Of a stretch of 64,000 bases of DNA, positions 6,578-61,825 are shown piece by piece. Positions within the stretch are counted from its first letter, which is position 1. The number at the start of each line of letters is the position of its first letter. Under the pieces are notes generated by a model. The model saw nothing but the letters and a program-made list of their open reading frames with translations. It made no database searches and was not told where the DNA came from. This DNA is from a virus (Duplodnaviria; Caudoviricetes). A program made the translations under genes and the position numbers. Where the stretch lies: IMG/VR virus record IMGVR_UViG_3300009868_000002, positions 1-64,000 of that record, one strand, 5' to 3'.

Positions 6578-6586
6578 TAAGCGATT

Positions 6587-6889: not shown

Positions 6890-6890
6890 G

Positions 6891-42826: not shown

Positions 42827-45800
42827 ATGGCTAAAGTAACCAGACCAATCGCTAATCTCAATCCTATTACAGGACAGCCTATACTTCCCCCTGCTGATGC
42901 AGGATATAAGTTTGGACAAGTGCAGGCAGGAGGAGGCTTTGCACCTTGGAGTGATATAGACTTATCGGAGTTCAGGCGGCTGGTTCCTATTCCAGTACTC
43001 ACTGGAGATGAAGCTGTTGACTACGCACGGCTAACTGAAGAGAGGGCGCAAAATCAGTCTACCTTTGAGCAATATCGCAATGGCGTAATAAAGTGGGCTG
43101 GTAAGACGGCAACAGCACTCATTGGTGGCTTAGCGACTGTCCCTTATACTATCGGTGTAGCAGGACTGCAGCTTGCCGACATCGCTATCCCCGGCAACGT
43201 GGTAAAGTGGAGCGACATCTATAACAACGCTTTTCAGCGCTCTTTGGATAGTGCTAACCAGTGGATGGACAAAAACCTGCCTAACTACTATACCAAGGCA
43301 CAGCAGGAGATGGGACTGGGTAGGCAGATGCTTACTGCCAACTTCTGGGCTAACGATTTCCTCGGTGGCATGTCATTCATGACGGGTGCTATCTTGAGTG
43401 AGATTACGGCATCCTATCTTACAGCACTTACCTTTGGTGCTGCTGCTCCTGCGCAGATGATGATAACGCAGGGTATCCTGGCACGTACCGCCAAGCTAAT
43501 GAAGATGCTGCAGCGTACTGCTCCCATCGACGACGTCATCAAGGGATATGCAGCACTTGGTAAGTCGGGAGCAGCATTTCAGAATATACAAGGACTGCGC
43601 AGCATCATTACGGGTGCCGGATATGAAGCGGGCGTCGAAGCACGCCACTTTATCGATGAAGCAGAACGTGATATGATTAGCAGCTTTGTCGACGCTGAAG
43701 GCAGGGAGCCTACAGCAGAAGAGCATGCTTCGATGATGGATAGGATAACCAGGCAGGCTAATGGCGTCTTCGCTACCAACCTGGGACTGGTAGGTGCCTC
43801 TAATGCCGCGATTTTTACCAAGACATTTGCTCCCCTACGCAACATGATTGGCAAGGCGCTGCGTATGGGCCCTGCTCCTATAGCGGGTGGCGTGCTCTCT
43901 CCCTTCGTCAAGGAAGGAGAGAAGCTGGCAGCACGGGAGATAGGGAATTGGGAGAAAGCATTGGTATCTGCCTATAAGCTCGCCAAGAAGCCCTTCATCG
44001 AAGGTGTATGGGAAGAAGGTTTGCAGGGCGTAACAAGCTCGGCAGCAGTGGATTACGTCATGAAGAAGTACAGCCATGATGGTGGTGATGCTACTTACTC
44101 TATGGCAGAAGCTATTACCAAGGGATTTGAGCAGGCTTACGGCACCAAGGAAGGACAAAAGGAAGTGCTCATTGGTGCTATCATGGGGTTGATAGGCAGT
44201 CCTATTACCCGATTTGAAGGCAGCTCCATCAAAGATGTAGTAAACTACCTACGTCAGGGCGATGCCAACAAAGCATTCGCTGAACGCTATAATAACGTAC
44301 AGACGCTACCGACGATACAAGCAGCCGTGAAGTCTACCATTCGTGGCCATGAGCTGAATCAGGAAATGGATTACGCCATTGACAGGGATGACTTCTTCAA
44401 AGCCAAGAACGCTGAAGATGATGGTATCTTTAACCTGCTGCAGATGCGCTACGATTCAGGCTATCTCGACCAGGTTGTTGACGACTTCGACGACGCTGTA
44501 AGAGATTACTTGGCCAATAGCGAAGAAGACGGCTACAAGAAGATGGCGGCAGACTTTGGCTTCGACCCCAGCACGTCGGTAACGGAGATGAAGGATAGGC
44601 TCAAAGAGGTGAGGGCAGGGCTGGAGATGAAGGTAGAGGCTTTCCGCAAAGCCAAGCAGAACGCCAAGGATGCTCTTATCCGCCCTGATGCCGACTTGGA
44701 AGAAGGGCTGACATATACGCTATATAACATCGGCAGAAAGAGCGAAAGGGAAAAAGAGGTAGCCAGTGAGATACAGCGCATAGTAGGTGATGTCGATACC
44801 AGAGAGTTGGAAGATATACGTAACTCCAACTTGTCGATATTGTTCTCCCGTAACTGGAAGAAGACGTTTGAGAGTGAGCGTGGCAATCTTCTCGACGAGA
44901 TGGATACTATGGAGAAGGACTTGGCAGAAGCACGCCAGAATTACGATAAAGCGCAAAAGAAGTTTGAAGATAAGATAAAGAGACTAGGAAAGCGGCGTAC
45001 TCCCAAGACAGCAAAGGAGATAGAAGATATCAACAAGCTGCCAGAAGAGCAGCGTGAGCTATTGCGCTATCAGGAAACAGGTTATACACAGGAGCTGCTG
45101 GATATCGAGTCTTCTATTACTAAGCTAGAAGATAATATCGAGAAGCAGCGTAAGAAAATCGCCGCCAAAGTAGCTAAGGAATACCAGGACCGCAACAATA
45201 CGTCTATTCCCTACGACATGGATTCTGTGGAATTTGAGAATCTCGTCGACAGGGCACTAGCGCTGCGTAAGAAGCTGGAAGTACACTACAAAAGCAATCC
45301 TGTAAATAAGAAGAAGCTAAAGCTCCTATTCGACGACTTGCATAGGCTTTCTGCTTATCGTCAGCGCCAGATTATGGAATATAACATGCTGGTTAGCCAG
45401 CCAGGTGCCGAAAACTTTCTGGAGAACGTCGCTGAGTTACGCTCTCTTATCGAGCAGGAGATTAATAGTGGTGCAGAAGCACAGCTAAAGAGAGCCGATA
45501 AGCTGTTTGCTAACAAGGCACGCGTCAAGAAGCTTATCGCCAGATACTATAGCGACGTAAGCCCTGAAACCAAAGATGCGCTGCTGGAGACATTCAAAAG
45601 CTATGTCCCTACCGCCGATGAGATGGCGGTGGAAGCAGCAACAAGACAAGGCCCTGATGCACTCAATGCCCTCATCGAAGGTGCTACGAAGGTATCGGCA
45701 GGGCATCAGTATGTAAGCAACCTATTTCGTACGATGCCCCAGTGGATGCGTGCTGGTAACGCCGCCATGCAGGCAGAGAAGCAGGCAGCAGAGCAAGCAG

Positions 45801-48800
45801 TCCAGCAACAGCAGGAAGAACCTAAAGAAGAAGGTGGCATTCCTGTGCCTCCTGGCAGCTTTAAGAAGCAAGAAGGTGCAGCACCTATATCCCCGTCGAC
45901 GACTACCGAAGGGGCAGTGAAACCGCCTGCAGGATTTACAGCACCAGGAGCTGCCAAGTCTTTTGTTGCAGAAGTAACAGAAGGGGAAAAGCCGCCAGAG
46001 GGATTTACCGCTGCTCCACCTACTGCTCCCCCTGCTGGATTTACAGCACCTACAGCGACGCCGCCACCTAAAGGATTTACAGCAGGAGAGCCAGAGACTA
46101 AGGGAGGTAGGCAAGTAGCGGTAACTAACCCCAATGAGCTGCTATGGATATGGAATGACTATCCCGAAGCACGCAATCAGGAATTATGGGAAGAATCTTT
46201 CGATGAAGCTACAGGCAGAGGTATACGCGAGTACCCCGATGCCACCAAGAAGGCGATGCGGGCATATACCGCCAAGCCAAAGGCATCGAATCTACAGCTA
46301 CGTATCGAAGAGTGGAATCCTGCTGCAGAGAATCTGGAGCCCGAAGTACGCATTACCGACGATGTGGTGATGATGCGTACTTATCTGCGTGGTGGCAAGC
46401 ATTGGAGAGCACGTCTCTTTGTGCGGGAAGATGCTAACGATGAATGGCATGAGGTGGGCAGCTTGCTCAACCCCAAGCGCTATGTCAATAACGATGGAGT
46501 GCCTTTCGACTTGACGGACCCCGAGCAGCGCTCCACCCTTAATCCTGCCTTTAAAGAAGGCGAGCAGGGTGAGAAGCTTTCTACGATGTATGAGAAGCTG
46601 ACGAAGGAAGAATCGCTATGGAGCTGGATAGACAGCCAGATTGATAAAGGAGGCGCCACTGTTACGGGGACTCCCTTGCAGGTGGTATTTGGCAAGTCCG
46701 ATGTGCACGTGAAGATGTTTAACTTCAGCATCAACCACGGTGGTACCGTGATGCGCTGGCAGGAAAAGCACGGTGGACAGTCTATTGAAGAGAAGTTTCC
46801 CCCCGATATCTATGGACGTGAAGTTACCATCAAGGGTAAGAAAACCAAGGCGATAATCTATATCGACAAGAAGACGAATACCGCTACCGGAGAGACTAAA
46901 TTTAACTACACTTTCCTGCATTACGACGAGGACGGCAACAGGATGTATAGCGAACCAACGCCGGAGCAGTCACAGGAAATCTACGCTGAAGATAAGGCAT
47001 TACGAGAGAATAAGCAGAATAAGGCTTACCGTGTGCAGGATAAGATTATACTGTTTGAATACGATGGCCACAAAGAATGGAGTGGTGTCATGAATCCTCC
47101 TGTTGATGCAGAGGCTGTTAAAGCTGTAGATGCAGAGTTGGAGCGCATCTTCACCAAAGATGAAGAGGGACTATACCCCCATCAGCGGGAAGAGGAATTC
47201 GAGGAAGGCAAGGGACGACAGGTAGCGCTGCTTCCCAAGGATGAAGACAGGTATATTTCGGTGCTGGCGTATGATAATGCCAGTGGTAAGGGCAACCTGC
47301 TCAAGGGCATACATATCAGCCTACAGATGTGGGTGAATAAGCTCAAGAATGCCGATGCTTCCAAGCTGCTGGGAGGTCCTACTTCCTACTTCAACGTAGA
47401 GTTAGGCATCGAGATGAATGATACCTGGGTGAACTTCATCGTCAGCCGTACAGAAGACGGTGTTTTCTACATGGAGCCCAAGGATAGCAGGGGCGTAAAG
47501 TATCGTACCTACATCGGCCCTAACATAACGATGGAAGGCATCCTCAATGCGCTCCATACAGAAGAGTATATGAAGAGTGCTCCTACCAAGTCGAAGATTG
47601 CCAACTACCTGGAAGGCAAAGCAAAAGCTTGGGGAGTACCTGGATTTTACATCAAAGGCACTGGATACAGACAGGGCAACCAGCAAGGCAGGTCAGTCGC
47701 AGCATTCGATGCACTAGCGCTGATGTCTCCCAATCCTTCTGCTTTTCTGGATATGGACTTGAAAGAAGAAGAGGAGATAGGTGCTGTGCAGGAATTTCTG
47801 GAAGGACAGGAGCAGAAAGAAGCTGAGGAAGAAAAGAAAGAAGAGGTACCTGCAAAAACAGAAGCTCCTGCAACAAAAGGATTTACAGTAAACCTGCAAT
47901 CTACCCGTGGCGAGGATGATGATGTTCCCTTCAAGATTGTCCCTAACGTTTCCGACAAGGAGCTTACTACCTTCGATGAGGCTAAAGCTAATATACAGTC
48001 TATCCTCAATATCGACGTCAAGGATATAGATACCGTCGTCGGCAACATCGCTAACAAGGGCATCACGGTAGGCGCCTTTATGTCGAACGTCGTCTACCTA
48101 TCCAAGAAAGCATTACCCAAAGGTACAGAGTGGCATGAAGCTTTTCACGTCGTCTTCCGTACCTTCCTTAGCAACTCACAGATTAGCCACTACCTGGGAT
48201 TGGCAAGAGAGCGCTATACGCTGCCCAGCAAGGAAGCATTAGAGAAATTCAGGGAGCAGGCTGCCAACCGTAAAGACTTGACGGCTAAGCAGCTGGAAGA
48301 CTTGTGGCTGGAGGAGAAGATGGCCGATGACTTTGCAGACTTTCAGGCACACCCTGCCAGCTATACCAGGACGAAGAAACACAATAATGCTTTCGTCAGG
48401 CTATGGAATGAGCTGCTGAAATGGTTAGGGCTCTATAGCGAGCATGCCGACGAGATTGAAGCGCTCTTTAGCGACATCAGCATTGGCAAGTTCCGTACGG
48501 CTACTCCCGTGTATAACATCTTCAGGCTCCGCAAAGAGGCGGCATGGCTCAACTATCCTACTATCGAGATAGCGGAGAACGATATCCTTCCTGTCTTCGA
48601 CGCCAAGACGGTTAGTAGCGACGTACACATGCTTGCTGCATTGGTGTACAGGCAGCTGACAGCACAGGGCATTGACGGATTTAATAAGTACCACATCTCT
48701 GCCATTCTGGATACCATGCGCGACAGGTTCAACCCCGAGCGCTGGGATAAGAGGCTTGGTGGTGCTGTCGATGTAGCAGAGGCAGACAGGAATGCACTAT

Positions 48801-51316
48801 ATCAGAGGCTGATAGGTATACATAACGCCATCAGCCATCCGGGGCAGACGATATTTGCGCTGGATAACAATGGAGGCTTTGGCGCCATCAACTTTGAAGG
48901 CAACAGCCCTGAAAGCATAGCGGCTTATGATAAGCGCTGGCAGAAGACATACGATGCCAACCTGGAAGAGATATTGAAAGACATCAAGCTGATGAGTGTC
49001 ATCTATCAGCAGGATGAAGTGCTGGCAGAGGATGCCAACCAGGCTGACTATGAAGAGAGTGAAGAAGATTCTCTCCCCGGCAATGAAAAGAAGGGAGACA
49101 GATATGGGGGATTATCCTCTACATCAAAAGCTTTCAGGCAGTACATCCTTACCACCTATGGAGAGATGGACTACTTCGAGCTGGGCATAGGTGAAGATAT
49201 ACTCAAAGCTGACGCCAACAAGGAGTTGTTTCTATTCCCTGCCAACCCTGGTATACTGTATAACGGTATCTTGGCGGCACTGCGCGATACTCCTATTCAG
49301 GAAGTGATGTCCCGCTTTGTGGTATGGAGCAGGGACAACAAGAATAGTAGGCTGCTGGCAGAGCGTCTGTTTAGCGACATCAAGGCAGAGCTCAAGCAGA
49401 ATGGGATTGCTGTAAGGGACATCGAAGACTATCTGGCAAATGTCGCCAACGTAGCAACGCTAATACGCAATAGCAATACATTCAACCTCTTCATCAACAA
49501 CTTCACCAAGCATAGCAGGGAGTACCTGGACTTGATACTTGACCCCACGAAGACACATACCCTCATCAGTCCTATGCACGCTAACCAGCAGGATAGCGAC
49601 GCCATGCAGGTAAACAGGTGGCGTGCCAAGATGGCGAGGGCCTATGAGAAAGCACCGGCAGGTACTCCTTTCTTTGGGCAGAACAACGTATTGCACGGTG
49701 TGCTGCAGGACATCCAAGCCAAGTTTGAATTCTTTAGCGGCAAGAATGTCGACAAGACGGTGAGGGAGATAAAGGCGTTATTTGACAGCATCGGTATAGA
49801 GGTGGCACCGGGGTATATACGCTATAGCCTGTATCGCAATAAAGCCAACGAGTTTGAAGCTTTGGACCCCAACGATGAAACGGCAGATAGCGACTTCATC
49901 AAGTTTGGCAGGACGTATGATAGTATCAACGAGCCTACCATCGCTGAAGAGCTGGGGGGATTGACAGAAGTGGCGCGTGGCGGTACCGTGCAGGTGGTAG
50001 GGGATTTCTTCACCAGCGAAAAGGGAGCGCTTAGCAGGCTGATGAAGCTGGCACGTACCAATACGCTGTTCGACGAGACGCTCTTCCGTACCAGCATACA
50101 AAACTCCAATGGCGAGAGGGTATTTCCTATATCGTCGCCGTCATTTGTCTCTACGATGTCGCTGCTGCTGCGTGACAGGAGAAGGAGAGCTTTCGTTGAC
50201 GCTATGCGGGTGCTGGCAGCGAATCCTACTAAAGCTAACGACAAGAAAGCATACCAGGCATTTACCGATAGCATGGGAAGTGAATTAGGATTGGAGCCCT
50301 ACTTTGCACGGCGCTACTTCGACAACATTAAGAATAACCCGCTGCTGCTGGGGCTGACGAATGACGGCAGCTATGATAACCGCATCAGCGAAGTATTCCT
50401 TAACTACTTCATCGACTATAACTTGTTTGGTGTAAGGCTGGACTTCTTGGAAGAAGTCGAAGAGACGGGTGAGGTAGTCAGGGAGACATGGAAGCAGGGA
50501 TATAGGGAGGGCGCCGACTACTCCGACTTGGATGCTTTCAGTAAGCTTGTCGCCAAGATGTCGTTTTATATTGATAGCACAGGTACTATTAACAGGGCTG
50601 CTTCGGAAGCTATCGAAAGCAAGAAGGAAGTGCTAGTGCCTTTCCGCGTCGTCGTTCCGGCGGTGTTGGAAGCCAAAAAGACGGCTAATGCTTTTGCTGT
50701 GCCAGTGCTTAAGTACACCAGAACCGATAAGGAGAAAGGCTTGGTGCTATCAGATATAGGCAAGAAAGTATTTAAAGCACACCTACAGCGGGAAGTGGAT
50801 AATCTCAACAAGACAAAAGCGGAGATTGCCGCCATCATCAAGGGCGACAAGATAGAGAATATCGTCGAGAAGTACCACTACATTCCTTATAACGATAGCA
50901 AGTATACGTATCAGGACGGCACTTTCTACGAGATTGTGCCAAAGTTTATACGCGATGAATATGGTGCTCCCGTCATGGACAGCATGCAAGTTACCGTCGT
51001 CACGGATAGCAAATTGATTGAAGATTTGCAGAAGGAACTTCCCAAGCTACGGGGGCTGCGCTTATTCGATATGCGCATACTTCCTAATGCCGACGAGATA
51101 GAAAAGGCAGGCGTCATACCGAAAGACATCGACGACGTAATAGACAGCCACATGCAGTCGGAATTTCATAAATTTGTACAGCTATTGCGTGTCAAGCACC
51201 GTGCTGTTGTTTCCGACTTGCACGGAAAGAAGGGACAGGAGCTATTAGCGATACTAAACCAGCAGCAGGCATTCAAAGATGCCTGGGCTAAAATAAGCAG
51301 ATTACCATGCAAATGA
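42827..51316 (+). CDS. Giant cargo protein with TM segments, coiled coil, zincin-like domain and probable N-terminal part of the virion RNA polymerase
   Basis: 2829 aa; N-terminal hydrophobic helices; WHEAFH (HExxH at 48134-48148) plus LEEKMADDF; precedes the catalytic RNAP gene. Confidence 0.75.
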   Translation: MAKVTRPIANLNPITGQPILPPADAGYKFGQVQAGGGFAPWSDIDLSEFRRLVPIPVLTGDEAVDYARLTEERAQNQSTFEQYRNGVIKWAGKTATALIGGLATVPYTIGVAGLQLADIAIPGNVVKWSDIYNNAFQRSLDSANQWMDKNLPNYYTKAQQEMGLGRQMLTANFWANDFLGGMSFMTGAILSEITASYLTALTFGAAAPAQMMITQGILARTAKLMKMLQRTAPIDDVIKGYAALGKSGAAFQNIQGLRSIITGAGYEAGVEARHFIDEAERDMISSFVDAEGREPTAEEHASMMDRITRQANGVFATNLGLVGASNAAIFTKTFAPLRNMIGKALRMGPAPIAGGVLSPFVKEGEKLAAREIGNWEKALVSAYKLAKKPFIEGVWEEGLQGVTSSAAVDYVMKKYSHDGGDATYSMAEAITKGFEQAYGTKEGQKEVLIGAIMGLIGSPITRFEGSSIKDVVNYLRQGDANKAFAERYNNVQTLPTIQAAVKSTIRGHELNQEMDYAIDRDDFFKAKNAEDDGIFNLLQMRYDSGYLDQVVDDFDDAVRDYLANSEEDGYKKMAADFGFDPSTSVTEMKDRLKEVRAGLEMKVEAFRKAKQNAKDALIRPDADLEEGLTYTLYNIGRKSEREKEVASEIQRIVGDVDTRELEDIRNSNLSILFSRNWKKTFESERGNLLDEMDTMEKDLAEARQNYDKAQKKFEDKIKRLGKRRTPKTAKEIEDINKLPEEQRELLRYQETGYTQELLDIESSITKLEDNIEKQRKKIAAKVAKEYQDRNNTSIPYDMDSVEFENLVDRALALRKKLEVHYKSNPVNKKKLKLLFDDLHRLSAYRQRQIMEYNMLVSQPGAENFLENVAELRSLIEQEINSGAEAQLKRADKLFANKARVKKLIARYYSDVSPETKDALLETFKSYVPTADEMAVEAATRQGPDALNALIEGATKVSAGHQYVSNLFRTMPQWMRAGNAAMQAEKQAAEQAVQQQQEEPKEEGGIPVPPGSFKKQEGAAPISPSTTTEGAVKPPAGFTAPGAAKSFVAEVTEGEKPPEGFTAAPPTAPPAGFTAPTATPPPKGFTAGEPETKGGRQVAVTNPNELLWIWNDYPEARNQELWEESFDEATGRGIREYPDATKKAMRAYTAKPKASNLQLRIEEWNPAAENLEPEVRITDDVVMMRTYLRGGKHWRARLFVREDANDEWHEVGSLLNPKRYVNNDGVPFDLTDPEQRSTLNPAFKEGEQGEKLSTMYEKLTKEESLWSWIDSQIDKGGATVTGTPLQVVFGKSDVHVKMFNFSINHGGTVMRWQEKHGGQSIEEKFPPDIYGREVTIKGKKTKAIIYIDKKTNTATGETKFNYTFLHYDEDGNRMYSEPTPEQSQEIYAEDKALRENKQNKAYRVQDKIILFEYDGHKEWSGVMNPPVDAEAVKAVDAELERIFTKDEEGLYPHQREEEFEEGKGRQVALLPKDEDRYISVLAYDNASGKGNLLKGIHISLQMWVNKLKNADASKLLGGPTSYFNVELGIEMNDTWVNFIVSRTEDGVFYMEPKDSRGVKYRTYIGPNITMEGILNALHTEEYMKSAPTKSKIANYLEGKAKAWGVPGFYIKGTGYRQGNQQGRSVAAFDALALMSPNPSAFLDMDLKEEEEIGAVQEFLEGQEQKEAEEEKKEEVPAKTEAPATKGFTVNLQSTRGEDDDVPFKIVPNVSDKELTTFDEAKANIQSILNIDVKDIDTVVGNIANKGITVGAFMSNVVYLSKKALPKGTEWHEAFHVVFRTFLSNSQISHYLGLARERYTLPSKEALEKFREQAANRKDLTAKQLEDLWLEEKMADDFADFQAHPASYTRTKKHNNAFVRLWNELLKWLGLYSEHADEIEALFSDISIGKFRTATPVYNIFRLRKEAAWLNYPTIEIAENDILPVFDAKTVSSDVHMLAALVYRQLTAQGIDGFNKYHISAILDTMRDRFNPERWDKRLGGAVDVAEADRNALYQRLIGIHNAISHPGQTIFALDNNGGFGAINFEGNSPESIAAYDKRWQKTYDANLEEILKDIKLMSVIYQQDEVLAEDANQADYEESEEDSLPGNEKKGDRYGGLSSTSKAFRQYILTTYGEMDYFELGIGEDILKADANKELFLFPANPGILYNGILAALRDTPIQEVMSRFVVWSRDNKNSRLLAERLFSDIKAELKQNGIAVRDIEDYLANVANVATLIRNSNTFNLFINNFTKHSREYLDLILDPTKTHTLISPMHANQQDSDAMQVNRWRAKMARAYEKAPAGTPFFGQNNVLHGVLQDIQAKFEFFSGKNVDKTVREIKALFDSIGIEVAPGYIRYSLYRNKANEFEALDPNDETADSDFIKFGRTYDSINEPTIAEELGGLTEVARGGTVQVVGDFFTSEKGALSRLMKLARTNTLFDETLFRTSIQNSNGERVFPISSPSFVSTMSLLLRDRRRRAFVDAMRVLAANPTKANDKKAYQAFTDSMGSELGLEPYFARRYFDNIKNNPLLLGLTNDGSYDNRISEVFLNYFIDYNLFGVRLDFLEEVEETGEVVRETWKQGYREGADYSDLDAFSKLVAKMSFYIDSTGTINRAASEAIESKKEVLVPFRVVVPAVLEAKKTANAFAVPVLKYTRTDKEKGLVLSDIGKKVFKAHLQREVDNLNKTKAEIAAIIKGDKIENIVEKYHYIPYNDSKYTYQDGTFYEIVPKFIRDEYGAPVMDSMQVTVVTDSKLIEDLQKELPKLRGLRLFDMRILPNADEIEKAGVIPKDIDDVIDSHMQSEFHKFVQLLRVKHRAVVSDLHGKKGQELLAILNQQQAFKDAWAKISRLPCK

Positions 51317-51804
51317 TTTCCAACGAGATGATAGCCTTGCTGAATTACCGCATTCAGCAGGAAGAGTTAAGCAGCCGCCTCTATTGGGCGATGAGCCAGT
51401 GGCTTGACAAGGTAGGCTACATAGGTGCTGCCAAGCTATGGGCCAAGTACAGCAAGGAAGAAACAGAGCATGCGCATTGGGCGTATGAATTCCTGCAGGA
51501 CTTGGATATTCTTCCACTGACGCCTGCCCTGGAAGAGCCTCCGCAGTTGTTTGAGGGGCTCTCTGGTGTCATCGAAGCGACGGTGCTACATGAAGAAGAG
51601 GTGACGAGACAGTGTGAGGAGCTGGCACGTGCAGCGATGGCGGAAGGAAGCTTCCTGGTATACACGCTGGCACATAAATACGTTGCCGAGCAGAGAGAAG
51701 AGTTAAAAAAATCTTACCTGCTGAAGGACAGGCTGGAAGAGTTTGGCAATGACTCTGTTAACATGAGGCTCTTCGATAAGGAATTAGGCGAGATGGCCGG
51801 ATAA
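51307..51804 (+). CDS. ftnA: Non-heme ferritin
   Basis: LN..I..E..SS..Y.AM..W, EETEHA, HEEEVT, EQREE ferroxidase-centre pattern; 165 aa. Confidence 0.9.
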   Translation: MQMISNEMIALLNYRIQQEELSSRLYWAMSQWLDKVGYIGAAKLWAKYSKEETEHAHWAYEFLQDLDILPLTPALEEPPQLFEGLSGVIEATVLHEEEVTRQCEELARAAMAEGSFLVYTLAHKYVAEQREELKKSYLLKDRLEEFGNDSVNMRLFDKELGEMAG

Positions 51805-51813
51805 AAATATGCT

Positions 51814-54800
51814 ATGGCTTGTACTTTCAAATATAATTCTCCCCTTGGCAAGGAAGTGAGCTTCACTGCTGACACCCGTGAGGAGTTGCGTAACCAGCTT
51901 GTCCGCTATATCATGCTCAATGAAGCGGAAGTATATGGAGAGCTGAAAAATAACATCCTTCCCTATAAGGCAGGCAGTGAAACCAACTTCGTCGATGCCG
52001 ATAACGACATTAGCAAGGAAGCGCTTTTTAGCTTTTTCGCCAACGACTTCCTCTCATCGATGTCGCTGATGAACCTGCTGTATGGCGATGCACGGATGAT
52101 GCATGAAGACTTCAAGGATGCTACCAAGCGTAATGGCAACCTGATATCTGCTGGTAGCCAGACGGGTGTAGGTATGACGACGGTAGCTGTCATTGCCGAC
52201 AAGAAGATAGATTTGGCGGAGAGAAATAGCCTGATAAAAACCAACAATACAAAGACGAAGTACGAGCCACAGGATGGCCAGAGCTACACCAGCGTACACT
52301 GGTATATGGATAAGTATTTGCCTAGCCTTGCACGCTATAGCAAACCCGTAAAGGATGCCTTCATGAAGATTCGTGCAGGCATTCCACTGACTAGTAAAGA
52401 AACCAGCCTGTTGAAAGTACAGCATGCCAGCTTCATCGACAGGAAGATGGTAGGCAAGTCTCTCTTCCAGCTGCTGAAGACTTCCACGCACCTGCAAACC
52501 AGGGAGAAAACCAGCTACATAGACTACCAGGGAAGGAATAAGGAAGAAGTACATAAAAAGCTGCTTGGACTATGGAGGCAGTATGATAATGCTGCCAACG
52601 AAATCGAGCAGCGCAAAGTCCTGAAGGAGATACATAGTTACTACAAGCCCCAACGCCATCGCCAGTACCACCACCAGATGCTCAACGACATGGAGATGCG
52701 CTCTACGCATTGGGTGGCTATGGGTACTGCATCAAAGACGGTATCTACCGATGTAGGCAGGTACAATGAAGCAGAAGGTTTCTTCGAGCTGACGCCACAC
52801 CTGATGCCAGACACGGGTATTCTGGAGCAGGTAAAGACGGACAACCTGAAGAGCGAAATCATTCACGGCACACAGCTGCAGGGCTTGGTATGGAGTGAGC
52901 AGGCTGGTGATGAGCAGAAAGTAGAAACCCCTTCAGGGATAAAGACTACCGTCGGTGAGCTGCGTAAAGTATATGCACAGCTGCTTGCCGAGCGTACTAT
53001 CAGGGGCTTGAATGCCAAGCGCAGTGAGCTCTTTACGGAAGAGGGAGAAGTAAACTACGAATTGATACACTCCCGCATCATTAGCGGTATGCAGTCCAGC
53101 TCTCCTGATACACAGTTATTGGAGCTGTTATCATTAGACGATAAGGGCAAGCCCAAGTACAACTGGAACCTTCCCGTGCTGCACAAGAAGCTGCAGAACT
53201 TGCTGCTCAACTACTTAAGCAAAGATTCCCTCAAGCACGTCGTCGAAGGGCAGAAGTACACATTGGTATCGGCGGTAGGACATGAGGTGCTGTTCGATAA
53301 GAAGACGGGAAGGGTAGTACCTACGTCGGAGTACCTGCGCAATCCCAGCAAGTATGAAGGTGATGCTTATGGCACCAGGGACTTGCAGTTTGGCAGGCTG
53401 GAGAATGGAGTGTACTATAGTGAGGCCATCGTGCCGCAGCGGGTGCTTGACAAGTTTGGCATCAAGGTAGGACAGGAGATTGCCGTCAATGGCAGGATGC
53501 TTGCACAGATGGGGGTACGTATCCCTACACAGGATAAGCATTCCATGGTAGTGCTGAAGATTGTCGACTCGCTACCGGAGCTGTATGAGAATAGCGTCAT
53601 ACTACCTTACGAGGTAGTATTCCTGTCGGGTGCTGACTTCGACATTGACAGCTTATTTGCCAGGAACTTCTATAGCTATAAAATTGATAAGAAGGCATAC
53701 TTCTTTGGGCAGTATCATACTGCAGAGAATCCTGTAGAGCAGGCATATAAGGAATGGCAGCATAGCAAGGAAGTAGAGAGGCTCTATAGCAAAGAAATCG
53801 CTGAATGGGAAGATAGCGATAACCACCTACAAGATTTACTGCAACGGTTAGCACGTTTCCAAGTAGCCGGAGAAGTGGCTGTTAGCGTGGAGGGTGAAGA
53901 CTATAAAGGGCTTACTAAGGTACTCGATGAATTGTATGAAGACGGATTGAAGGAAGCAATCGCAGAGCAGCGTAGCAAAATACGTGAGGTAGTTTCTTCG
54001 CAGAAGATGTCTTTGAAGGAGTTTAGCAAGCAGCATGGCAAGCAGATACTGGTCAACGTAGCAGCTTATGAAAAAGGGAGCTTAAGCAAGGTTAAGGCTA
54101 TCACTAATGAAGAGCTTAACAACTTGCTACTGGAAGCAGAGATAGGGATGTCGTTTAATGAAGGTAATGCCGCTAACGCTACTACGAAGGCATCGCTGGA
54201 AGCATTTGAGAAAGCAGGAGAGCTATTCAAGCAATGGGGCATACTCACTGCCGATGAAGTGACGGGGCTGTATAATGCCATGGATAAGTTGCTAGCACAG
54301 CAGTCCAACGATACGGGCAAGAAGAATATCGGCCCTGGTGCACTGCACAACATTATGTTTCAGCTACTGGCAGAGCGCAAGACGCAACTTATAAAAGAGG
54401 TACGCACAAAGGCAGCAGCGAATCACGCAATGAAGTATGCCATGCCTGCAGCAGACAACCTTACTGGAGCAGCTACTACTACATTAGAGTTGGCTGAGCA
54501 GGGACTTCGTACAGCAACAACAAGAAGCTTTCCTTTAGGTAAAATAGGTGATATTATTACTTTTGAAGGAAGGCCGACAAAGTATATTATTACAGGAATC
54601 GAAACCTTAACAAAAGAAAATACGTCTAATCCAGAGTGGATAAAGCAGTGGAGCCAAAAAGAGCAATGGACAGAAAAGCACTTTAAGGAAATTCTGGGAG
54701 GGAAAACAGTACACATAGGGAGTGTTCAAACATCATTTAGGATAGCTACAGAAGAAGAACTGCTACAAAGGAGTGACGAGGCTTACTTTGGCAAATACAC

Positions 54801-57462
54801 AGAGTATGGCAGCTTCACCAACAGCAAACGTGAGCGTATCAATGACTTGATTTCTACTGTCATCTCTGGTATGACGGATAACGCCAAGCACCTATTTGCT
54901 GCACGCTTTGAGCTTACCTTTGAGCAGGTAGGCCCCTTCATGCACATGATAAGCATGGGGATGCCGTTCACTGAAGCACTGTTACTAGTACGACAGCCTA
55001 TCCTGACTATCTACCAGGATATTCTGGAAGACAAGAAGAGGCTAGTGAAGAAGCGCGGCGTACTGGAGAAGGAGACTATCCAGGGTATCAAGCTGGATAA
55101 GATAGCGCAGGAAGCGGCACGCAGGCTTTATGAGAACCTGTTTGGTGACAAGATAGAAATCAGAGAACCAGGCGAAGAAGAAGGTGTTGAAGAAGAAGCA
55201 ACTGCTATCGGATTTGATGAAGCTCTTGTCAAGCCACAGCCTTTTGAAGTAGGGGAAGATAGCCTGATGAAGATGGCGATACAGTACCAGAGTGGTGCTG
55301 TTCCTAATCCTGAAGAGTACTTCGCCAAGCAGGTATACCTGCTTAATGACTACAAACGTATCGTCGATGATAGCAAGTCACTGATGGCCTTCTCGCAAGT
55401 GCTGCAGCTAATCAAAGGATTCAAGACGACGTTTGCAGAGTCCCGCATGGTAACGCAAGCATTGGAGAATCTAGGGCTGGAGCCTCACTTTGCCAAGCTG
55501 AAGGAAGAAGACGCCAAGAAAGTAAAGGATGAAGTAAGCATCATGACGCTAAAGGACGGTACGTTAGTGGCTACCTTTGTCGATAAGTCTACTCCCGGCA
55601 GTCCTGCAATGAAGTTTTCGCTACGCCCTACCGCTAAGCTGGCAGAGTCCCCTGAAGACTTTACCGCTATATCTGAAGGGATACGCGACGTCCTCACTAC
55701 CAACGAAACTGTCTTTGCCCGTATTGCTACAGACCAGATACTACACCGTGATAGCGCACAGATAGTGATTCGTGAAACAGATACCTATACAGACTTGGTG
55801 AAGGAAGTTAATAGCGCTGTAAACCAATTCTACCTGCTCAACAAGGAAGGCATGGAGAAGGTAGAGACAGCGTTGATTACTTTCCTCAATATGCGTGCTT
55901 TTGCTCATTTAAATAAGCAAGCAAAGATAGGGATTAGCGATAAGGATAATGCCCTGCGCCTTATGGCGATGTTTAAGCTGATGCCCAATAACGATAGCGT
56001 ATTGCGCTATATCTTCGACAGGCTGCGCACTATAAAGGAGTTTAAGGCAAACAAGTTTCTCAACTTCATCCGCATGGATGACGTCGAGATAACGGGTAAG
56101 TTCAACCCCTTAGCCAACCTGGTGATGGGTAAGATTGTCGGAGATACACGCAGTGAATATACGCCCGAATACAGGCAGGACGTCGCTAATGACTTGATAG
56201 CACTGGGCAGAGCAGGACAGAAATATGGAAACTTATTTGAAGACGAGAATGCGCTAAACGACTTGCCGGAAGCAATACGGCAGCTGACACCACGGCAGCT
56301 CGCCAAGCTAGCCTACGACATGGCGATACACTATAGTATGCTGGTTGATAATATGCAGTATCGCAATAACGGCATCGCCAAGCTTATTAACCCTGTAGCG
56401 TGGAAGCCTGTAGCGGAAGCGCTAAGTGCTGTACAGCATGTGTTCAACAACAAGCCGGAGCCTTTTGTCTATCGCGGTACAGAGATGAAGCTGCGCAGCT
56501 TTGAAGACTTGTTTGGTTTATCCCGGGATGAGCTCATCGTAGAGTTTATGACGCTGTATTCCCGCAATGTCGCCAACTCCGCTGAAGTACGCTACATCAA
56601 TGCACCCAAGATGAAGGTGGTGGTGAATAAAGCTGCTGATGGAGAGGTAGTAACTTTCAGTGGGCAGCCTTCGATTTCTACGCTGAAGGTTAACCTCAAC
56701 AGGATTAAGGAAGGGCAGTGGGGTGATACTATTAGTAGGCTAGCTACTTTTGGTTTTGAACCTCGCGGTGAAGGGCTACTCCGCATACCACAGGTAGTAA
56801 AGGTAGGTGCCAAGAGAAGCCCTACACGCTTGATGCATCTGAAGAAGCTGTGGTGGCATGAGGGAGGGGAGGATGGCAAGACGTATGTATATGAAAGAGA
56901 GCCTTATCCTGGCGTCGCCGAAGGAGATGTGACGCTGCACCAAGTGGTACGATATGAATATCGCCGTGCTACAGAAAAGGAAAAAGGAGGTAGGATAGAA
57001 TCTACCAAGCAAGTGGTAAGAAACTTTCCACTGGTAGGCAGGGGTGCTGAATACGAATTGAGTGAATGGATAATTCCCAAGGGAGTGGTAGGGCTAGCGC
57101 TGCCTCTGTACTTGGCAGAGTACACTGCTGCCTATGTACGGCAGCTTACCAAGAGTCCACAGAGAGGTGCCAAGAAAGAAGAAAAAGAAGAAAAAGAAGG
57201 TGTACCACGAGGGTTTACTGCTGCTGCAGTGACAGCACGGGATTTCTACAATGCCTTAGCTAAAGAATATGGAGTAGCAGATGTTGACGGCATGGAGTAC
57301 TTCACTAATCCTGAAGTCGCTAAGCGGGTAGAAGGATACGAAAAAGAGTATGGCAGGAAATTCAAAGTAGTAGCTAAAGAGATTAATAACAAGACGTATT
57401 ACCGCGTCGACATGGTTATTCCCAGCATCGACAAAGTAACTAAAAGATTAGAATGTGGCTAG
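51814..57462 (+). CDS. Virion RNA polymerase catalytic subunit (two-barrel, crAss-like)
   Basis: D..KR, DGQSY, KTS, RIPTQDKHSM, GADFDID (53629-53649), TDNAK. Confidence 0.92.
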   Translation: MACTFKYNSPLGKEVSFTADTREELRNQLVRYIMLNEAEVYGELKNNILPYKAGSETNFVDADNDISKEALFSFFANDFLSSMSLMNLLYGDARMMHEDFKDATKRNGNLISAGSQTGVGMTTVAVIADKKIDLAERNSLIKTNNTKTKYEPQDGQSYTSVHWYMDKYLPSLARYSKPVKDAFMKIRAGIPLTSKETSLLKVQHASFIDRKMVGKSLFQLLKTSTHLQTREKTSYIDYQGRNKEEVHKKLLGLWRQYDNAANEIEQRKVLKEIHSYYKPQRHRQYHHQMLNDMEMRSTHWVAMGTASKTVSTDVGRYNEAEGFFELTPHLMPDTGILEQVKTDNLKSEIIHGTQLQGLVWSEQAGDEQKVETPSGIKTTVGELRKVYAQLLAERTIRGLNAKRSELFTEEGEVNYELIHSRIISGMQSSSPDTQLLELLSLDDKGKPKYNWNLPVLHKKLQNLLLNYLSKDSLKHVVEGQKYTLVSAVGHEVLFDKKTGRVVPTSEYLRNPSKYEGDAYGTRDLQFGRLENGVYYSEAIVPQRVLDKFGIKVGQEIAVNGRMLAQMGVRIPTQDKHSMVVLKIVDSLPELYENSVILPYEVVFLSGADFDIDSLFARNFYSYKIDKKAYFFGQYHTAENPVEQAYKEWQHSKEVERLYSKEIAEWEDSDNHLQDLLQRLARFQVAGEVAVSVEGEDYKGLTKVLDELYEDGLKEAIAEQRSKIREVVSSQKMSLKEFSKQHGKQILVNVAAYEKGSLSKVKAITNEELNNLLLEAEIGMSFNEGNAANATTKASLEAFEKAGELFKQWGILTADEVTGLYNAMDKLLAQQSNDTGKKNIGPGALHNIMFQLLAERKTQLIKEVRTKAAANHAMKYAMPAADNLTGAATTTLELAEQGLRTATTRSFPLGKIGDIITFEGRPTKYIITGIETLTKENTSNPEWIKQWSQKEQWTEKHFKEILGGKTVHIGSVQTSFRIATEEELLQRSDEAYFGKYTEYGSFTNSKRERINDLISTVISGMTDNAKHLFAARFELTFEQVGPFMHMISMGMPFTEALLLVRQPILTIYQDILEDKKRLVKKRGVLEKETIQGIKLDKIAQEAARRLYENLFGDKIEIREPGEEEGVEEEATAIGFDEALVKPQPFEVGEDSLMKMAIQYQSGAVPNPEEYFAKQVYLLNDYKRIVDDSKSLMAFSQVLQLIKGFKTTFAESRMVTQALENLGLEPHFAKLKEEDAKKVKDEVSIMTLKDGTLVATFVDKSTPGSPAMKFSLRPTAKLAESPEDFTAISEGIRDVLTTNETVFARIATDQILHRDSAQIVIRETDTYTDLVKEVNSAVNQFYLLNKEGMEKVETALITFLNMRAFAHLNKQAKIGISDKDNALRLMAMFKLMPNNDSVLRYIFDRLRTIKEFKANKFLNFIRMDDVEITGKFNPLANLVMGKIVGDTRSEYTPEYRQDVANDLIALGRAGQKYGNLFEDENALNDLPEAIRQLTPRQLAKLAYDMAIHYSMLVDNMQYRNNGIAKLINPVAWKPVAEALSAVQHVFNNKPEPFVYRGTEMKLRSFEDLFGLSRDELIVEFMTLYSRNVANSAEVRYINAPKMKVVVNKAADGEVVTFSGQPSISTLKVNLNRIKEGQWGDTISRLATFGFEPRGEGLLRIPQVVKVGAKRSPTRLMHLKKLWWHEGGEDGKTYVYEREPYPGVAEGDVTLHQVVRYEYRRATEKEKGGRIESTKQVVRNFPLVGRGAEYELSEWIIPKGVVGLALPLYLAEYTAAYVRQLTKSPQRGAKKEEKEEKEGVPRGFTAAAVTARDFYNALAKEYGVADVDGMEYFTNPEVAKRVEGYEKEYGRKFKVVAKEINNKTYYRVDMVIPSIDKVTKRLECG

Positions 57463-60400
57463 TTGCACCATAACACGGAATCAGCACGATGAAATCGTCA
57501 GCGTAAAAGCTGCTAACGGTAACGACAGTAAGCTCTTCGCCGACATACTGGCACACGAGAAAGTCCAGGGCGATAAGGAATTGGCTGTACAGATATATAA
57601 AAGTATCTATACCGAAGAGTTTGAGAAAGCTACCAGGGAGACTATCGCCAAGGAGAAGGTGACTACCGCCGAAACAAAGGATGCCAACGCTGAATATAAG
57701 CTGGACTGGCTGGAGAAGCACGCCCTCTTCTTTGTCCCCAAGAGTGCTGAATTGCGTCATGGCGTATACCAGTCGCAGATGGAAGGCAAGACGAAAGATG
57801 CCAAGGATGCCGCTGAGAGGCTGCTACTGATGAATGACGCCGTCACCAAGCCTGTAAATAAGAACGACAAGTATATCGTCGAAGGTAAGGAGCTAAACCG
57901 TGTTACCGAAGAGCTGAAGAAGGATGAATTCTTTGGCTATCGCGGCATCGACGAAGAAGAAACAGAAGAAGATATACTGCGTCAGGCATGGGGTAATACC
58001 GTCGATAAGATTCTCAATGCCGTTGTTGCAGGGGAGGATGTTACGCTGGATAAAGACGACAAAATCACACAGGAAGTATTCGACTACCTGAAGAAGTACT
58101 TCTCTGACTTGATAGCTAAATACCCTGGGCATATCTTTCTTTCGCAGATGTCGCTATTCAATGTCAGCAAAAACATAGCGGGTACCGCTGACGTCGTGAT
58201 GATAAACCCTGAAGGCGAATTGCGCTTTATAGACTTGAAGACAAGTCTGTATCCATTCACGGAAGGCTATAAGACGGATGCAGGATTTGATGCACATTAT
58301 AACAAAAGAGTTACCCATAAGGAAGGCGACAAGAAAGTAGTCACCGCCAGCCGCAAGGACAGGCACTCGGCACAGGTAGGTACCTATGCCGCTATGGCGG
58401 AAGCTATGGGATTCAAGCTTGCCGAGAAGCCTATACTAATCCTTCCCTTTCAGATTACAAAGGTAGATGGCGACAAGATAGCGAGAGTGAAGCATGATAC
58501 CTATGGTGAGGATGACTTCATTGAGGGGGAGTACTTCCAGACGATACAGGCACGCTATAACAAGGATACCAGGCTGGAAGGTGCTACTCATGCTATCACT
58601 CGTGCGCTGAAGATACTAAAGGAACACGCTATGCTGGCTAGGCAGCGTGGTAAGCCATCGGGACGTATCGAAGCAATCATCAAGGAGATTGACGAAAGCG
58701 TCGATGCAGAGGCAGCGATAAAGTTTATCGACAATGCCTATACTACCTTTGTAGCTAACATCGCCAAGCAATACAACAAGGAAGTCGACACACTAAAAAA
58801 AGCTACTCCCGAGCAGTATGGCGATGCAATCGTCACCTTCCTCAACTTTCTGGATGACACCAGAAAGATGATGGACATCTACCATGGTAAAGACTCTATC
58901 CTAAAGAGTATCAATAAGCTATATCGCAACATCAAGGATATAGACCCCGGCTACAGACCCGAAGCAGGCTCACCGCTGGATAAGATAGAGACTACCATTC
59001 GCGTCATCGACGACTTACGTACCGATATCGACGACATCCTTCCCGGCATTATGGCGCGGATACTGGCCAAGCAGGTACACTTGGGAAGCATTGAAGCAAT
59101 GAAAGCCAAGGAGCAGCATCTGATAAAGAAAGTCAATGCTTCGCCTAAAGACTCCCGCAATCGTGTCAAGCATGAGAGAGAGCTTGCCGAGCATAGAGAG
59201 AAATTCCATATCTCCGAGAGTGGCGACCCCGACATGATTGCGAAGATTGAGCAGGAGATAAAGCAGGGAGGGTATAAGGATATAGGCGCTATGGACAGGT
59301 GGTTTAGCCCTGCTGTAAGCATGGATAACAGCTTTCTGGCGACGTTTGTGCTGACGCTAAAGGAAGCTTTCGAGAAAGCCAAGGCACTGGCACGGGACTT
59401 TATGTACCAGGCACATGAAGCTTTTGAGGAATATGCCAAAGTGGCTGGTGCTAGCAGGGATAACCCTAACCAGTTTAATGCTGGCCTCTTCAAGAAGCGC
59501 AACATGTTTCTGGATAAGGATACTACTAAAGAAGTGCTAAGCTTTGTAGCCCCCCTAGACTATGGCCGCTTTGAAGCCGAGCGCACTAAGATGTTCAAGG
59601 AAGCGGAGAAGATTAAGGACAGGAATGCGAAGAATAAGTTTGTCGCCGACTGGTACGCCGCTAATACGCAGCTACGCCCTCTGGAGCACGTCGAAGGAGT
59701 GACGACGTATAACGGCGTCAAGCTGCTGGATTCTGTCAGGGATGTTGCTGCACGCATGAAAAAGAATTGGGGTGAGGACTTGACAAATAAGTATATTTCG
59801 GAGCACGTCACCTTTACCAACGGTAAGATGACGTCGGCAGACTGGACATCGGGGATGCTGATACCCAGCATAAGTAAGTACGCCGATAGCGACTTTGCTG
59901 CACTGCGCACTAATGCCGCCAAGTTTAAGTTCTACCTGTTCCTGATGAATAGCTACCTGCGCTCACAGTCGCGGCTACCGGCACGCAAGAGTGAGTCACA
60001 TCGATTTCTGGTGCCCTTCGTGAAGAAGTCGGGAGGAGACAGACTGCGCGAAGGTAAATTCTGGGATGCTTTCAAGAATAGGTTCTGGGATGAGGCTATG
60101 CTGCGCATCGATGAAGACTATCAGACGGAGGGGCTGGAAGATACCAAAACCATTCCTATCCTCTTCTATAACGATGGACATACCATGGATGCTGCCGATG
60201 TGAGCACCGACTTGATGGCAAGCATCCTGAAATTCGAGATTGCCAGCTTACGCTATGAGCAGCAAAGCAGGCATAGCAGCCTTGCCGACAACTTGCTGCT
60301 TAGCGTTAAGCAAACGGAGCCTGCTGCAACAGACAGCGCTGGCTGGCGTATCTTAAGTAAGGCGGCGAAGGCAGTAGGCATTACCGAAGGGATGGAGAAA

Positions 60401-61825
60401 TACGTGAAGAAACACGGCAGCAATCAGGTTGCCGCCATGCTGGAAGCATTTATCGACGTTACCATCTATGGGCAGCGCCGCAAAGACCCCACCTTTAAGA
60501 TAGGCAGCCGAGTGGTGGACTTGGGTAAGGTTGCTGACAGCATCATTAGCTTTAGTAGCAAAACGCAGATTGCCGCCGACTGGACGCTGGCATTAGCCAA
60601 CTCCTTGCAGGCACGGGTAAACCAACAAATAGAAGCAGCAGCACGTCAGTATTATAATGGCAGAGACTGGATAAAGGCAGAAGTGGAATACGATAAGCAC
60701 CTGGGGGCAATGGTTGGCGACAGACTTAATCCCGTCACCAAGTCACTCATGGGGCAGCTGATAGACTTATATGAGCCTATCCAGGGCACCTTCACCGATG
60801 AGTTTGGACATCGACTAAGCAAGAGCAAGTTTAAGGCACGGATGAATAGCAGCTTGCTATACTTCGGCATGAAGTCGGGGGAGCATCATGCACAGGTAAA
60901 GAGCATGATAGCGATGATGCTAAGCAAGCAGGTGATGCAGAATGGTAAGCCTATTCCGCTATATGAAGCTTATGAGCGCGATGCGTCGGGAAAATTAAAG
61001 CTTAGGGAGGGTGTTGAAATGACGGAGCTGGTGGATAGGGCATTACAGAATAGGCTCCATGCCGTCAACAAGCGGCTGCATGGTGTATACAATAGCTTTG
61101 ATGGAGTAGAGATAGAGCGGCACTGGTATGGCAGGCTGCTAATCATGTACAAGAAGTGGCTGGCACCGGGACTAAAGAGAAGGTGGAAAGCAGAAGGCTT
61201 TGACTATGAACTAGGAGACTTCACCGAAGGGATGTATTCTACCTTCTTCAAGAAGCTCTTTGGTGAGTTTGGCGAATTCGCCAAGTACGTCACCGGCAAG
61301 GAGCATACCTTTTCGCCGATGGAGATAGCGAATATACGCAGGACGCTGTATGAATTTAGCGTTATCGCTATCACAGGGACGCTGGCTATCATCCTGTCGG
61401 CACTGGGCAGTGGCGCCGATACCGATAAGAAGTGGAAGTACCAATGGCCGCTGTATTTCCTGATGAGGTTGAATGCCGAGATATCGATATATGGAGGCTT
61501 GGGCGACCCTAGCAGCTTATTCCTTCCCAACTTACGGGAAGTGATTAGCCCCTATAGGAGCATTCCTGTGATGACGGTATTGCAGAAAGTTACTAACTTA
61601 TATTCTTCGGCATCGGGGGATGTCATTAATCTGATGCTTGGACAGGATATAAATAGATACCAAAATAATACAGGCATTTTTGACGCTGGCACCAGTAAGA
61701 CATGGGCTAATGCCGTCAAGGTGTGGGGTATTTCCGGCAAGTCGATGGATTCTGACTTGGCGTTAGACATACTACTACTACAGAAAGGTAGCAATGTTGC
61801 TGTAGTAGGTAAGACGAGAGAGTAA
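57455..61825 (+). CDS. Giant cargo protein with PD-(D/E)xK nuclease domain
   Basis: GTG start; IAGTADVV...IDLKTS...HSAQVGTY; helical C-terminus with hydrophobic segment. Confidence 0.75.
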   Translation: MASCTITRNQHDEIVSVKAANGNDSKLFADILAHEKVQGDKELAVQIYKSIYTEEFEKATRETIAKEKVTTAETKDANAEYKLDWLEKHALFFVPKSAELRHGVYQSQMEGKTKDAKDAAERLLLMNDAVTKPVNKNDKYIVEGKELNRVTEELKKDEFFGYRGIDEEETEEDILRQAWGNTVDKILNAVVAGEDVTLDKDDKITQEVFDYLKKYFSDLIAKYPGHIFLSQMSLFNVSKNIAGTADVVMINPEGELRFIDLKTSLYPFTEGYKTDAGFDAHYNKRVTHKEGDKKVVTASRKDRHSAQVGTYAAMAEAMGFKLAEKPILILPFQITKVDGDKIARVKHDTYGEDDFIEGEYFQTIQARYNKDTRLEGATHAITRALKILKEHAMLARQRGKPSGRIEAIIKEIDESVDAEAAIKFIDNAYTTFVANIAKQYNKEVDTLKKATPEQYGDAIVTFLNFLDDTRKMMDIYHGKDSILKSINKLYRNIKDIDPGYRPEAGSPLDKIETTIRVIDDLRTDIDDILPGIMARILAKQVHLGSIEAMKAKEQHLIKKVNASPKDSRNRVKHERELAEHREKFHISESGDPDMIAKIEQEIKQGGYKDIGAMDRWFSPAVSMDNSFLATFVLTLKEAFEKAKALARDFMYQAHEAFEEYAKVAGASRDNPNQFNAGLFKKRNMFLDKDTTKEVLSFVAPLDYGRFEAERTKMFKEAEKIKDRNAKNKFVADWYAANTQLRPLEHVEGVTTYNGVKLLDSVRDVAARMKKNWGEDLTNKYISEHVTFTNGKMTSADWTSGMLIPSISKYADSDFAALRTNAAKFKFYLFLMNSYLRSQSRLPARKSESHRFLVPFVKKSGGDRLREGKFWDAFKNRFWDEAMLRIDEDYQTEGLEDTKTIPILFYNDGHTMDAADVSTDLMASILKFEIASLRYEQQSRHSSLADNLLLSVKQTEPAATDSAGWRILSKAAKAVGITEGMEKYVKKHGSNQVAAMLEAFIDVTIYGQRRKDPTFKIGSRVVDLGKVADSIISFSSKTQIAADWTLALANSLQARVNQQIEAAARQYYNGRDWIKAEVEYDKHLGAMVGDRLNPVTKSLMGQLIDLYEPIQGTFTDEFGHRLSKSKFKARMNSSLLYFGMKSGEHHAQVKSMIAMMLSKQVMQNGKPIPLYEAYERDASGKLKLREGVEMTELVDRALQNRLHAVNKRLHGVYNSFDGVEIERHWYGRLLIMYKKWLAPGLKRRWKAEGFDYELGDFTEGMYSTFFKKLFGEFGEFAKYVTGKEHTFSPMEIANIRRTLYEFSVIAITGTLAIILSALGSGADTDKKWKYQWPLYFLMRLNAEISIYGGLGDPSSLFLPNLREVISPYRSIPVMTVLQKVTNLYSSASGDVINLMLGQDINRYQNNTGIFDAGTSKTWANAVKVWGISGKSMDSDLALDILLLQKGSNVAVVGKTRE

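Follow-up and report, generated by a model that had tools for sequence, protein, structure and literature searches.

Facing terminal cysteines point to disulfide-linked chains of giant cargo proteins in crassviruses

Why would three giant phage proteins, 6,167 residues in all, contain only four cysteines (Cys), one at each of the ends that face one another? The question is raised by a window of 64,000 nucleotides (positions 1 to 64,000 of the 103.6-kb virus record IMGVR_UViG_3300009868_000002), which encodes a crassvirus-type major capsid protein (12874-14469; Pfam Crass_capsid, E 2e-31) and three giant cargo proteins of 2829, 1882, and 1456 amino acids (aa), referred to here as chain members 1, 2, and 3. 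These proteins are most likely injected into the host. Member 2 carries the catalytic part of a virion RNA polymerase (RNAP), the counterpart of phi14:2 gp66, and homologs of phi14:2 gp67 and gp65 are present beside it. A first-pass annotation, made from the sequence alone, had proposed that the three proteins are joined head to tail by disulfides, the C-terminal Cys of one protein to the N-terminal Cys of the next. This idea is supported in part: the cysteines are conserved and track gene splits and fusions, a co-fold model of a relative's junction brings them into contact, and there is a precedent in cyanopodophage A4.

Translation of the window confirmed the four cysteines at exactly the two junctions. 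The single Cys of member 1 is C2828, member 2 has Cys only at C3 and C1881, and the single Cys of member 3 is C4. Other large open reading frames (ORFs) of the virion region contain 4 to 22 cysteines, among them 16 in 1421 aa and 22 in 721 aa. The upstream 459-aa and 924-aa cargo ORFs contain none, as had been noted, and show no sign of being joined into the chain. Given four cysteines, the probability of finding one per facing 10-residue end is ~1.7e-10; this is a post hoc figure, so the actual test lies in how well the pattern is conserved among relatives. In the closest relative, L067, the gene for member 3 has an ATG start and an identical N terminus, which backs its GTG start in the window. 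Two details of the first-pass annotation held only in part. The junctions do follow the chain order, but the first two genes are not adjacent in the DNA, as a ferritin-like ORF lies between them. Likewise, a shared RLxCx ending is present at the two C termini of the window, but it was rejected as a conserved motif, since the C termini of relatives vary and keep the Cys alone. Common to the relatives are only a Cys 0 to 6 residues from the C terminus and a Cys at N-terminal position 3 to 7.

We tabulated cysteines in 160 crAss-like loci, fetched by the RNAP motif alone, and in the named phages that were added to them, all reduced to 81 clusters at <60% core identity. Where gp65 is separate, 69 of 70 RNAP gene products have a Cys within their final 10 residues, and 65 of 65 gp65 proteins have one near the start. 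A separate RNAP has a Cys near its start in 23 of 24 cases, and a separate gp67 has one at its end in 10 of 10. The two free ends had none (0/66 and 0/33, total 0/99), and interior cysteines numbered 129 in 425,174 residues (0.03%). Both facing-end misses look like fusions on inspection. The N-side counts were obtained with a lenient start rule, under which the free ends still gave 0/33; a rule admitting only the first ATG gave 63/65 and 21/24. Loci that are intron-split, frameshifted, or truncated (L008, L012, L014, L081, L104, L146, L170, L172, L175, and L176) were left out of some counts. Among the apparent exceptions, cr60_1 is a fusion of gp67-plus-gp66 size; L210 (4632 aa, no Cys, not followed by a large ORF) is probably a fusion, although the gp65 profile hidden Markov model (HMM) missed it; L101 has a GTG start and an extra double-Cys member; and in L123 and L219 the true start is probably a later ATG. 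The annotated split of the RNAP gene in IAS virus (NC_049978; locus L012, 11860-11930) adjoins ambiguous bases, and two loci that are 86 to 87% identical to it (L071 and L072) have a single ORF; this split is probably an assembly artifact in the reference.

Among the relatives, the cysteines are conserved and paired, follow the split points, and vanish in fusions. Triple fusions have zero Cys (L135, L138, L191, and L212, of 5634 to 5649 aa, and L226, of 5255 aa), and a single Cys is typical of gp67-gp66 fusions of about 4,500 aa. Of the two terminal cysteines, the gp67-gp66 fusions of annotated phages keep just the C-terminal one (Fpv1, of 4,401 aa, has a single Cys), and the gp66-gp65 fusions just the N-terminal one. 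Additional members bearing Cys at both ends are present in L077, L090, L101, L153, and phi4:1 (gp37). The cut site itself moves: it is found between gp67 and the zincin, between the zincin and the RNAP, within the RNAP ahead of its catalytic core (this phage, L067, and L153), or after the core (L090). In L153, a 1129-aa protein comprising the zincin and the N-terminal part of the RNAP, with Cys at both ends, directly follows a cargo-1-like gene (4860-8249); its gp67 partner must therefore be encoded elsewhere in the genome. A midpoint-rooted FastTree of the RNAP core shows several alternations between split and fused forms, with rows of unknown state inflating the change counts. The triple fusions form one supported clade and the gp66-gp65 fusions another. 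This phage belongs to a supported clade in which most of the other members with a known state are gp67-gp66 fusions, which suggests that its inner cut and the accompanying Cys pair are derived, the direction being read from the midpoint root.

The same arrangement is found in named phages. In crAss001 the cysteines are C2339 of 2341 in gp47, C5 and C2404 of 2412 in gp50, and C5 in gp49; in phi14:2 they are C1797 of 1797 in gp67, C3 and C2179 of 2180 in gp66, and C3 in gp65; and in phi4:1 they are C1957 of 1957 in gp38, C4 and C516 of 517 in gp37, and C3 in gp35. In p-crAssphage, gp45 has C1956 of 1957, and the fused gp44 has C3 and no C-terminal Cys. Ten further annotated phages follow the pattern. 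The Leptolyngbya phage Lbo-JY46 (L240, 8543-21449) has no RNAP match in the block, and its gp67 homolog has C1552 of 1552 and its gp65 homolog C4. As in phi4:1 (L003), then, gp67 and gp65 homologs occur with no virion RNAP detected in the block, and the Cys pair is still there. From these sequences, the polymerase looks like one passenger among others.

What do the Cys-bearing ends look like? An AF2 model of the first 110 residues of member 3 shows a beta-hairpin and helices, and all nine library matches to this domain are N-terminal, with Cys at 3 to 5. Foldseek searches with the model gave no match in the PDB and only weak crAss-like and phi17:2 matches in BFVD; a single-sequence fold of aa 1 to 682 of member 3 reached a pLDDT of 41. 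The small N-terminal domains sort into several unrelated types, and none of four N-terminal-domain profiles matched the inside of any fusion. In the alignment of the C-terminal segments, Cys is the sole near-invariant residue. A co-fold of the terminal segments was made on the best-sampled junction type, that of the relative L116, with 77-row alignments; its N-domain type differs from that of the window. The predicted complex had an ipSAE of 0.73 versus 0.00 for the best of three controls. Of 80 solved complexes, 58 attained this mark, as did 2 of 110 mismatched pairs; these figures apply only roughly when own alignments are used. The runs agreed in at least 95% of contacts, the partner pLDDT was at least 86, and Cys4 and Cys58 were modeled in contact with an expected error of 1.0 Å. 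The predicted interface is mostly hydrophobic helix packing, with about 44 contacts. The model thus supports docking of the facing ends for the junction type of this relative, not for the pairs of the window themselves.

Cyanopodophage A4 provides a solved counterpart. Inside its capsid, gp27 reaches into gp26 with its C-terminal helix, and cryo-electron microscopy (cryo-EM) places a disulfide between Cys1715 and Cys5 (PMC12002296). In A-4L, gp27 Cys1715, the third residue from the end, and gp26 Cys5 are the only cysteines of their proteins, and the pair is retained in three more Saffermanviridae (Pf-WMP3, Pf-WMP4, and TR020). Homology of the A4 families to crassvirus cargo was rejected, as none of ten profile HMMs gave a match (best E 0.018) and a search with A4 gp26 found only Saffermanviridae-like cyanophages. 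A4 gp26 and its relatives (L239 to L243) are still labeled tail fibers in GenBank, whereas cryo-EM shows an internal ejection protein.

We propose that the gp67-gp66-gp65-type cargo block would function as one polyprotein, encoded by 1 to 4 or more genes with cuts at places that vary among lineages. At each cut, the upstream piece ends in a short, usually helical segment bearing a Cys and the next piece starts with a small domain bearing a Cys at position 3 to 7. The C-terminal segment would dock on the next N-domain during assembly, and the two docked cysteines would oxidize to an interchain disulfide once the virion meets oxygen, giving in the window a chain of 2829, 1882, and 1456 aa. The disulfide would take the place of the peptide bond that joins the pieces in fused forms, the pieces would be packed in a fixed ratio, and one unfolded piece would pull its successor along through the narrow tail and the trans-envelope channel, where noncovalent contacts alone would fail; the Cys-free remainder of the proteins would avoid wrong bonds. 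The links would open in the reducing cytoplasm, with release by thioredoxin-type reductants. In crAss001, the tail proteins of the virion contain disulfides, and the authors of that study argue that the cargo must partly unfold to pass the tail (PMC10172136), a situation in which a covalent link matters. We consider it very likely that the facing-end cysteines form an interchain disulfide in crassvirus virions, and we lean toward a role for this bond as the ejection tether of an end-docked cargo chain. Ordered and coupled ejection, the timing of bond formation, and release in the cytoplasm are what we infer.

Could the cysteines instead reflect gene architecture? TGY codons might arise from overlapping ATG or GTG starts, or by chance in Cys-poor proteins, and both C-terminal Cys codons in the window do overlap a possible start, a caveat that the first-pass annotation had raised. 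However, such overlap occurs at only about 6 of 83 representative junctions, and in L067 neither Cys codon overlaps a called start. The pair is also retained when the first member lies on the opposite strand (crAss001, DAC17, and cr116), where no start codon can overlap its Cys codon. Together with the 99 Cys-free free ends, these results refute the explanation, and the caveat was dropped. Intein or N-terminal-nucleophile ligation was also rejected, given N-terminal cysteines at 3 to 7, variable preceding residues, variable C termini, and no conserved His-Asn. It is improbable that the two cysteines coordinate a bridging metal (Zn or Fe), together with additional ligands or another copy of the pair, in the manner of zinc-hook dimers. 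A metal bridge would work without oxygen, which suits gut phages that retain the terminal cysteines, a ferritin gene lies at a junction in this phage and three relatives, and the co-fold gives contact rather than chemistry. Yet alignments A2, A3, and A4 show no further conserved Cys or His at either end, the A4 map was interpreted as a disulfide, and only 3 of the other loci searched had ferritin. Quite improbable, too, is noncovalent docking in which the Cys is kept for packing, as a zincin cysteine switch, or for transient mixed disulfides with host periplasmic thiol proteins. Hydrophobic helix packing on the scale of the L116 model could hold without a bond, and Bacteroidota use disulfide attachment in the type IX secretion system (T9SS) and in gliding (PMC12635249). 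This account leaves unexplained why Cys alone is near-invariant in the C-terminal segment across unrelated N-domain types, why both cysteines are gained and lost jointly, and why the same design occurs in cyanophages and at junctions far from any zincin.

A disulfide might also be a mere staple in the virion that fixes the stoichiometry and stability of the packed cargo (a pre-ejectosome), with no role in pulling or ordering. The A4 authors describe their bond in this way (PMC12002296), disulfides commonly stabilize virions, the crAss001 tail included, and all of the sequence evidence fits a staple equally well. A staple could, however, sit anywhere on an interface; the strict head-to-tail placement fits a linear tether better, as do the interchange with a peptide bond in fusions and the re-creation of the pair at new cut sites. 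We therefore regard a staple without a tethering role as unlikely. Several points nevertheless weigh against the disulfide tether. The disulfide in crassviruses is deduced, the cargo is unresolved in the crAss001 map (PMC10172136), and the gp66 crystal was made with dithiothreitol (DTT)/tris(2-carboxyethyl)phosphine (TCEP), its termini being absent. The junction used for the co-fold belongs to a relative and has a different type of N-domain. Gut phages replicate without oxygen, a condition in which the bond may fail to form, and their tolerated interior Cys content is about six times that of the other loci (0.106% versus 0.017%); their retention of the terminal cysteines alongside this higher interior content also fits a redox logic. 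T7, N4, and P22 eject large Cys-poor proteins without such pairs, and a tether is thus not generally needed. Finally, sequence data cannot separate a role in ejection from one in packing.

A further extension of the tether is possible, though doubtful. Crassviruses and, separately, Saffermanviridae might assemble a protein train that is released by redox change, with a portable Cys docking cassette as its coupling, and reduction of junction 1 could free the catalytic RNAP half from the N-terminal part that in phi14:2 carries an auto-inhibitory, cleft-blocking domain (gp66 196-233). Any protein given both end modules would then be packed and drawn through the tail in chain order, and entry into the cytoplasm would be the RNAP activation signal in this phage.

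The identities of the chain members and the coordinates of their features are given in Table 1. Member 2 has a two-barrel RNAP core, and its RIPTQ and DFDID motifs align with phi14:2 gp66 and crAss001 gp50, but DFDID starts at aa 608 in member 2 versus 1361 in gp66. The missing part was recovered with a profile of the last 1,179 residues of member 1 as HHalign query: it matches gp66 residues 226-732, so member 1 combines a gp67-like domain, a zincin, and the N-terminal third of the polymerase. By these alignments, junction 1 lies inside the RNAP, at another site than in phi14:2, and the RNAP of the window is a split variant rather than one gp66-like chain. The earlier label of member 1 as a membrane anchor was abandoned: a hydropathy scan found no transmembrane-like stretch (no 19-residue window above 1.5), and the protein has the zincin and RNAP part instead. 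The nuclease label of member 3 fared better, as a putative PD-(D/E)xK-type motif fits it. PDB sequence searches with all three chain proteins gave no match, and a single-protein scan of IMG/VR found no close relative of the window.

Table 1. Features of the cargo block in the window
Feature	Positions	Strand	Basis
Upstream Cys-free cargo genes (459 aa, weak crAss_CARG1; 924 aa)	38672..42825	+	Pfam/translation
Chain member 1, 2829 aa: gp67/gp47-like N-domain, zincin, N-terminal third of virion RNAP, putative C-terminal docking segment; Cys-free N terminus	42827..51316	+	tblastn to crAss001 gp47 and phi4:1 gp38; domain map; HHalign
Conserved gp67-like domain, aa about 74-660 of member 1	43046..44806	+	Homology, domain map
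Zincin-type HExxH motif, aa 1770 of member 1 (counterpart in crAss001 gp47 at aa 2157)	48134..48148	+	Motif read
aa 2092-2685 of member 1, homologous to phi14:2 gp66 residues 226-732 (virion RNAP N-terminal part)	49100..50881	+	HHalign probability 98.6, E 6.7e-16
Cys2828, sole Cys of member 1; junction 1, C side	51308..51310	+	Translation
Ferritin-like gene inserted at junction 1, not a chain member; probable start 51313 (ATGA overlap with stop, as in L067)	51307..51804	+	Pfam Ferritin E 3e-19; L067
Chain member 2, 1882 aa: catalytic part of virion RNAP; Cys at both ends	51814..57462	+	tblastn to crAss001 gp50 and p-crAssphage gp44; alignment A1
Cys3 of member 2; junction 1, N side	51820..51822	+	Translation
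Catalytic DFDID motif, aa 608-612 of member 2	53635..53649	+	Alignment
Cys1881 of member 2; junction 2, C side	57454..57456	+	Translation
Chain member 3, 1456 aa, gp65/gp49 homolog, GTG start; Cys-free C terminus	57455..61825	+	tblastn to crAss001 gp49 and phi14:2 gp65
Small N-terminal domain (beta-hairpin and helices) bearing Cys; putative docking domain	57455..57664	+	AF2 pLDDT 82
Cys4 of member 3; junction 2, N side; invariant in alignment A2	57464..57466	+	Translation, alignment
PD-(D/E)xK-type nuclease motif in member 3 (D246, D260, K262)	58175..58243	+	Sequence reading; weak PHROG exonuclease match E 0.005

The Cys pair is retained despite genes inserted between the partners. In four related phages, a ferritin-like gene occupies the exact position of a chain junction: junction 1 in the window, in L067 (1901-2392), and in L153 (8259-8744), and the RNAP-gp65 junction in L073 (13928-14380). 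One explanation for this placement may be that junctions are the sole insertion sites. In L067, a GIY-YIG gene (2385-3149) also lies between the ferritin and RNAP genes, and the terminal Cys pair is intact. The window itself has a GIY-YIG/NUMOD1 endonuclease ORF (37756-38703) between a 149-aa ORF, which has two neighboring cysteines at 9-10, and the 459-aa cargo-1-like ORF (region 37310-40051). Within the RNAP gene, the stretch 54340-54840 has no Pfam match; P0002, the closest relative, is shorter by 127 aa, and P0004 has a similar stretch near its C terminus.

Crassviruses are the most abundant phages of the human gut; their virions take up about 0.7 MDa of polymerase cargo, which then has to pass a tail whose constrictions are narrower than 50 Å. 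The terminal-Cys rule names residues and partner order, which makes the question of loading and ejection testable in the cultured phages phi14:2, crAss001, and A4, and it would explain why these genes fuse and split freely. For annotation, an ORF in the block with Cys at both ends can be read as a chain member, and a break without Cys is probably an intron or an assembly error. The rule also suggests a route for adding foreign proteins to the injected cargo of a phage.

How does this arrangement compare with known systems? The ejected proteins of T7 (gp14-16), N4 (gp50-52), and P22 (gp7, 20, and 16) resemble crassvirus cargo in the near-total Cys avoidance of proteins crossing the periplasm, but they differ in having no facing terminal pairs; the only Cys in this set is at position 2 of T7 gp14. 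In modular polyketide synthases, short C- and N-terminal docking elements order consecutive giant proteins and replace a covalent linker; unlike the crassvirus ends, these are noncovalent and cytoplasmic, and no homology is claimed. The type of bond is already known from one structure, that of A4. In the literature on Crassvirales, subscription papers not covered, we found no description of the terminal-Cys pattern, a multilink chain, or a fusion-linked rule. A4 gp27 and gp26 resemble the window in being consecutive giant ejection proteins with a sole or near-sole Cys at the C terminus of one and the N terminus of the next; they differ in having one junction and two proteins, in lacking an RNA polymerase, and in being nonhomologous. 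The A4 authors treat the bond as a stabilizing detail that further stabilizes the helix-in-cleft contact in a 5:5 ring, and crAss, conservation, and fusion are not mentioned (PMC12002296). Also close are phi14:2 gp67-gp66-gp65 (bioRxiv 10.1101/2020.03.07.982082) and crAss001 gp47-gp50-gp49 (PMC10172136), which are homologous and share the chain order, DFDxD, and terminal cysteines. The RNAP cargo block of cultured phages is virion-packaged, by mass spectrometry, and is a single fused polyprotein in some phages; neither of these two reports mentions the terminal Cys or a link between cargo proteins. The crAss001 structure paper attributes cargo order probably to packing and interactions among the proteins (PMC10172136). 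The window differs from phi14:2 and crAss001 in that its first cut falls within the gp66-equivalent region, the N-terminal third of the RNAP is carried on the first protein, and a ferritin gene lies in the cut.

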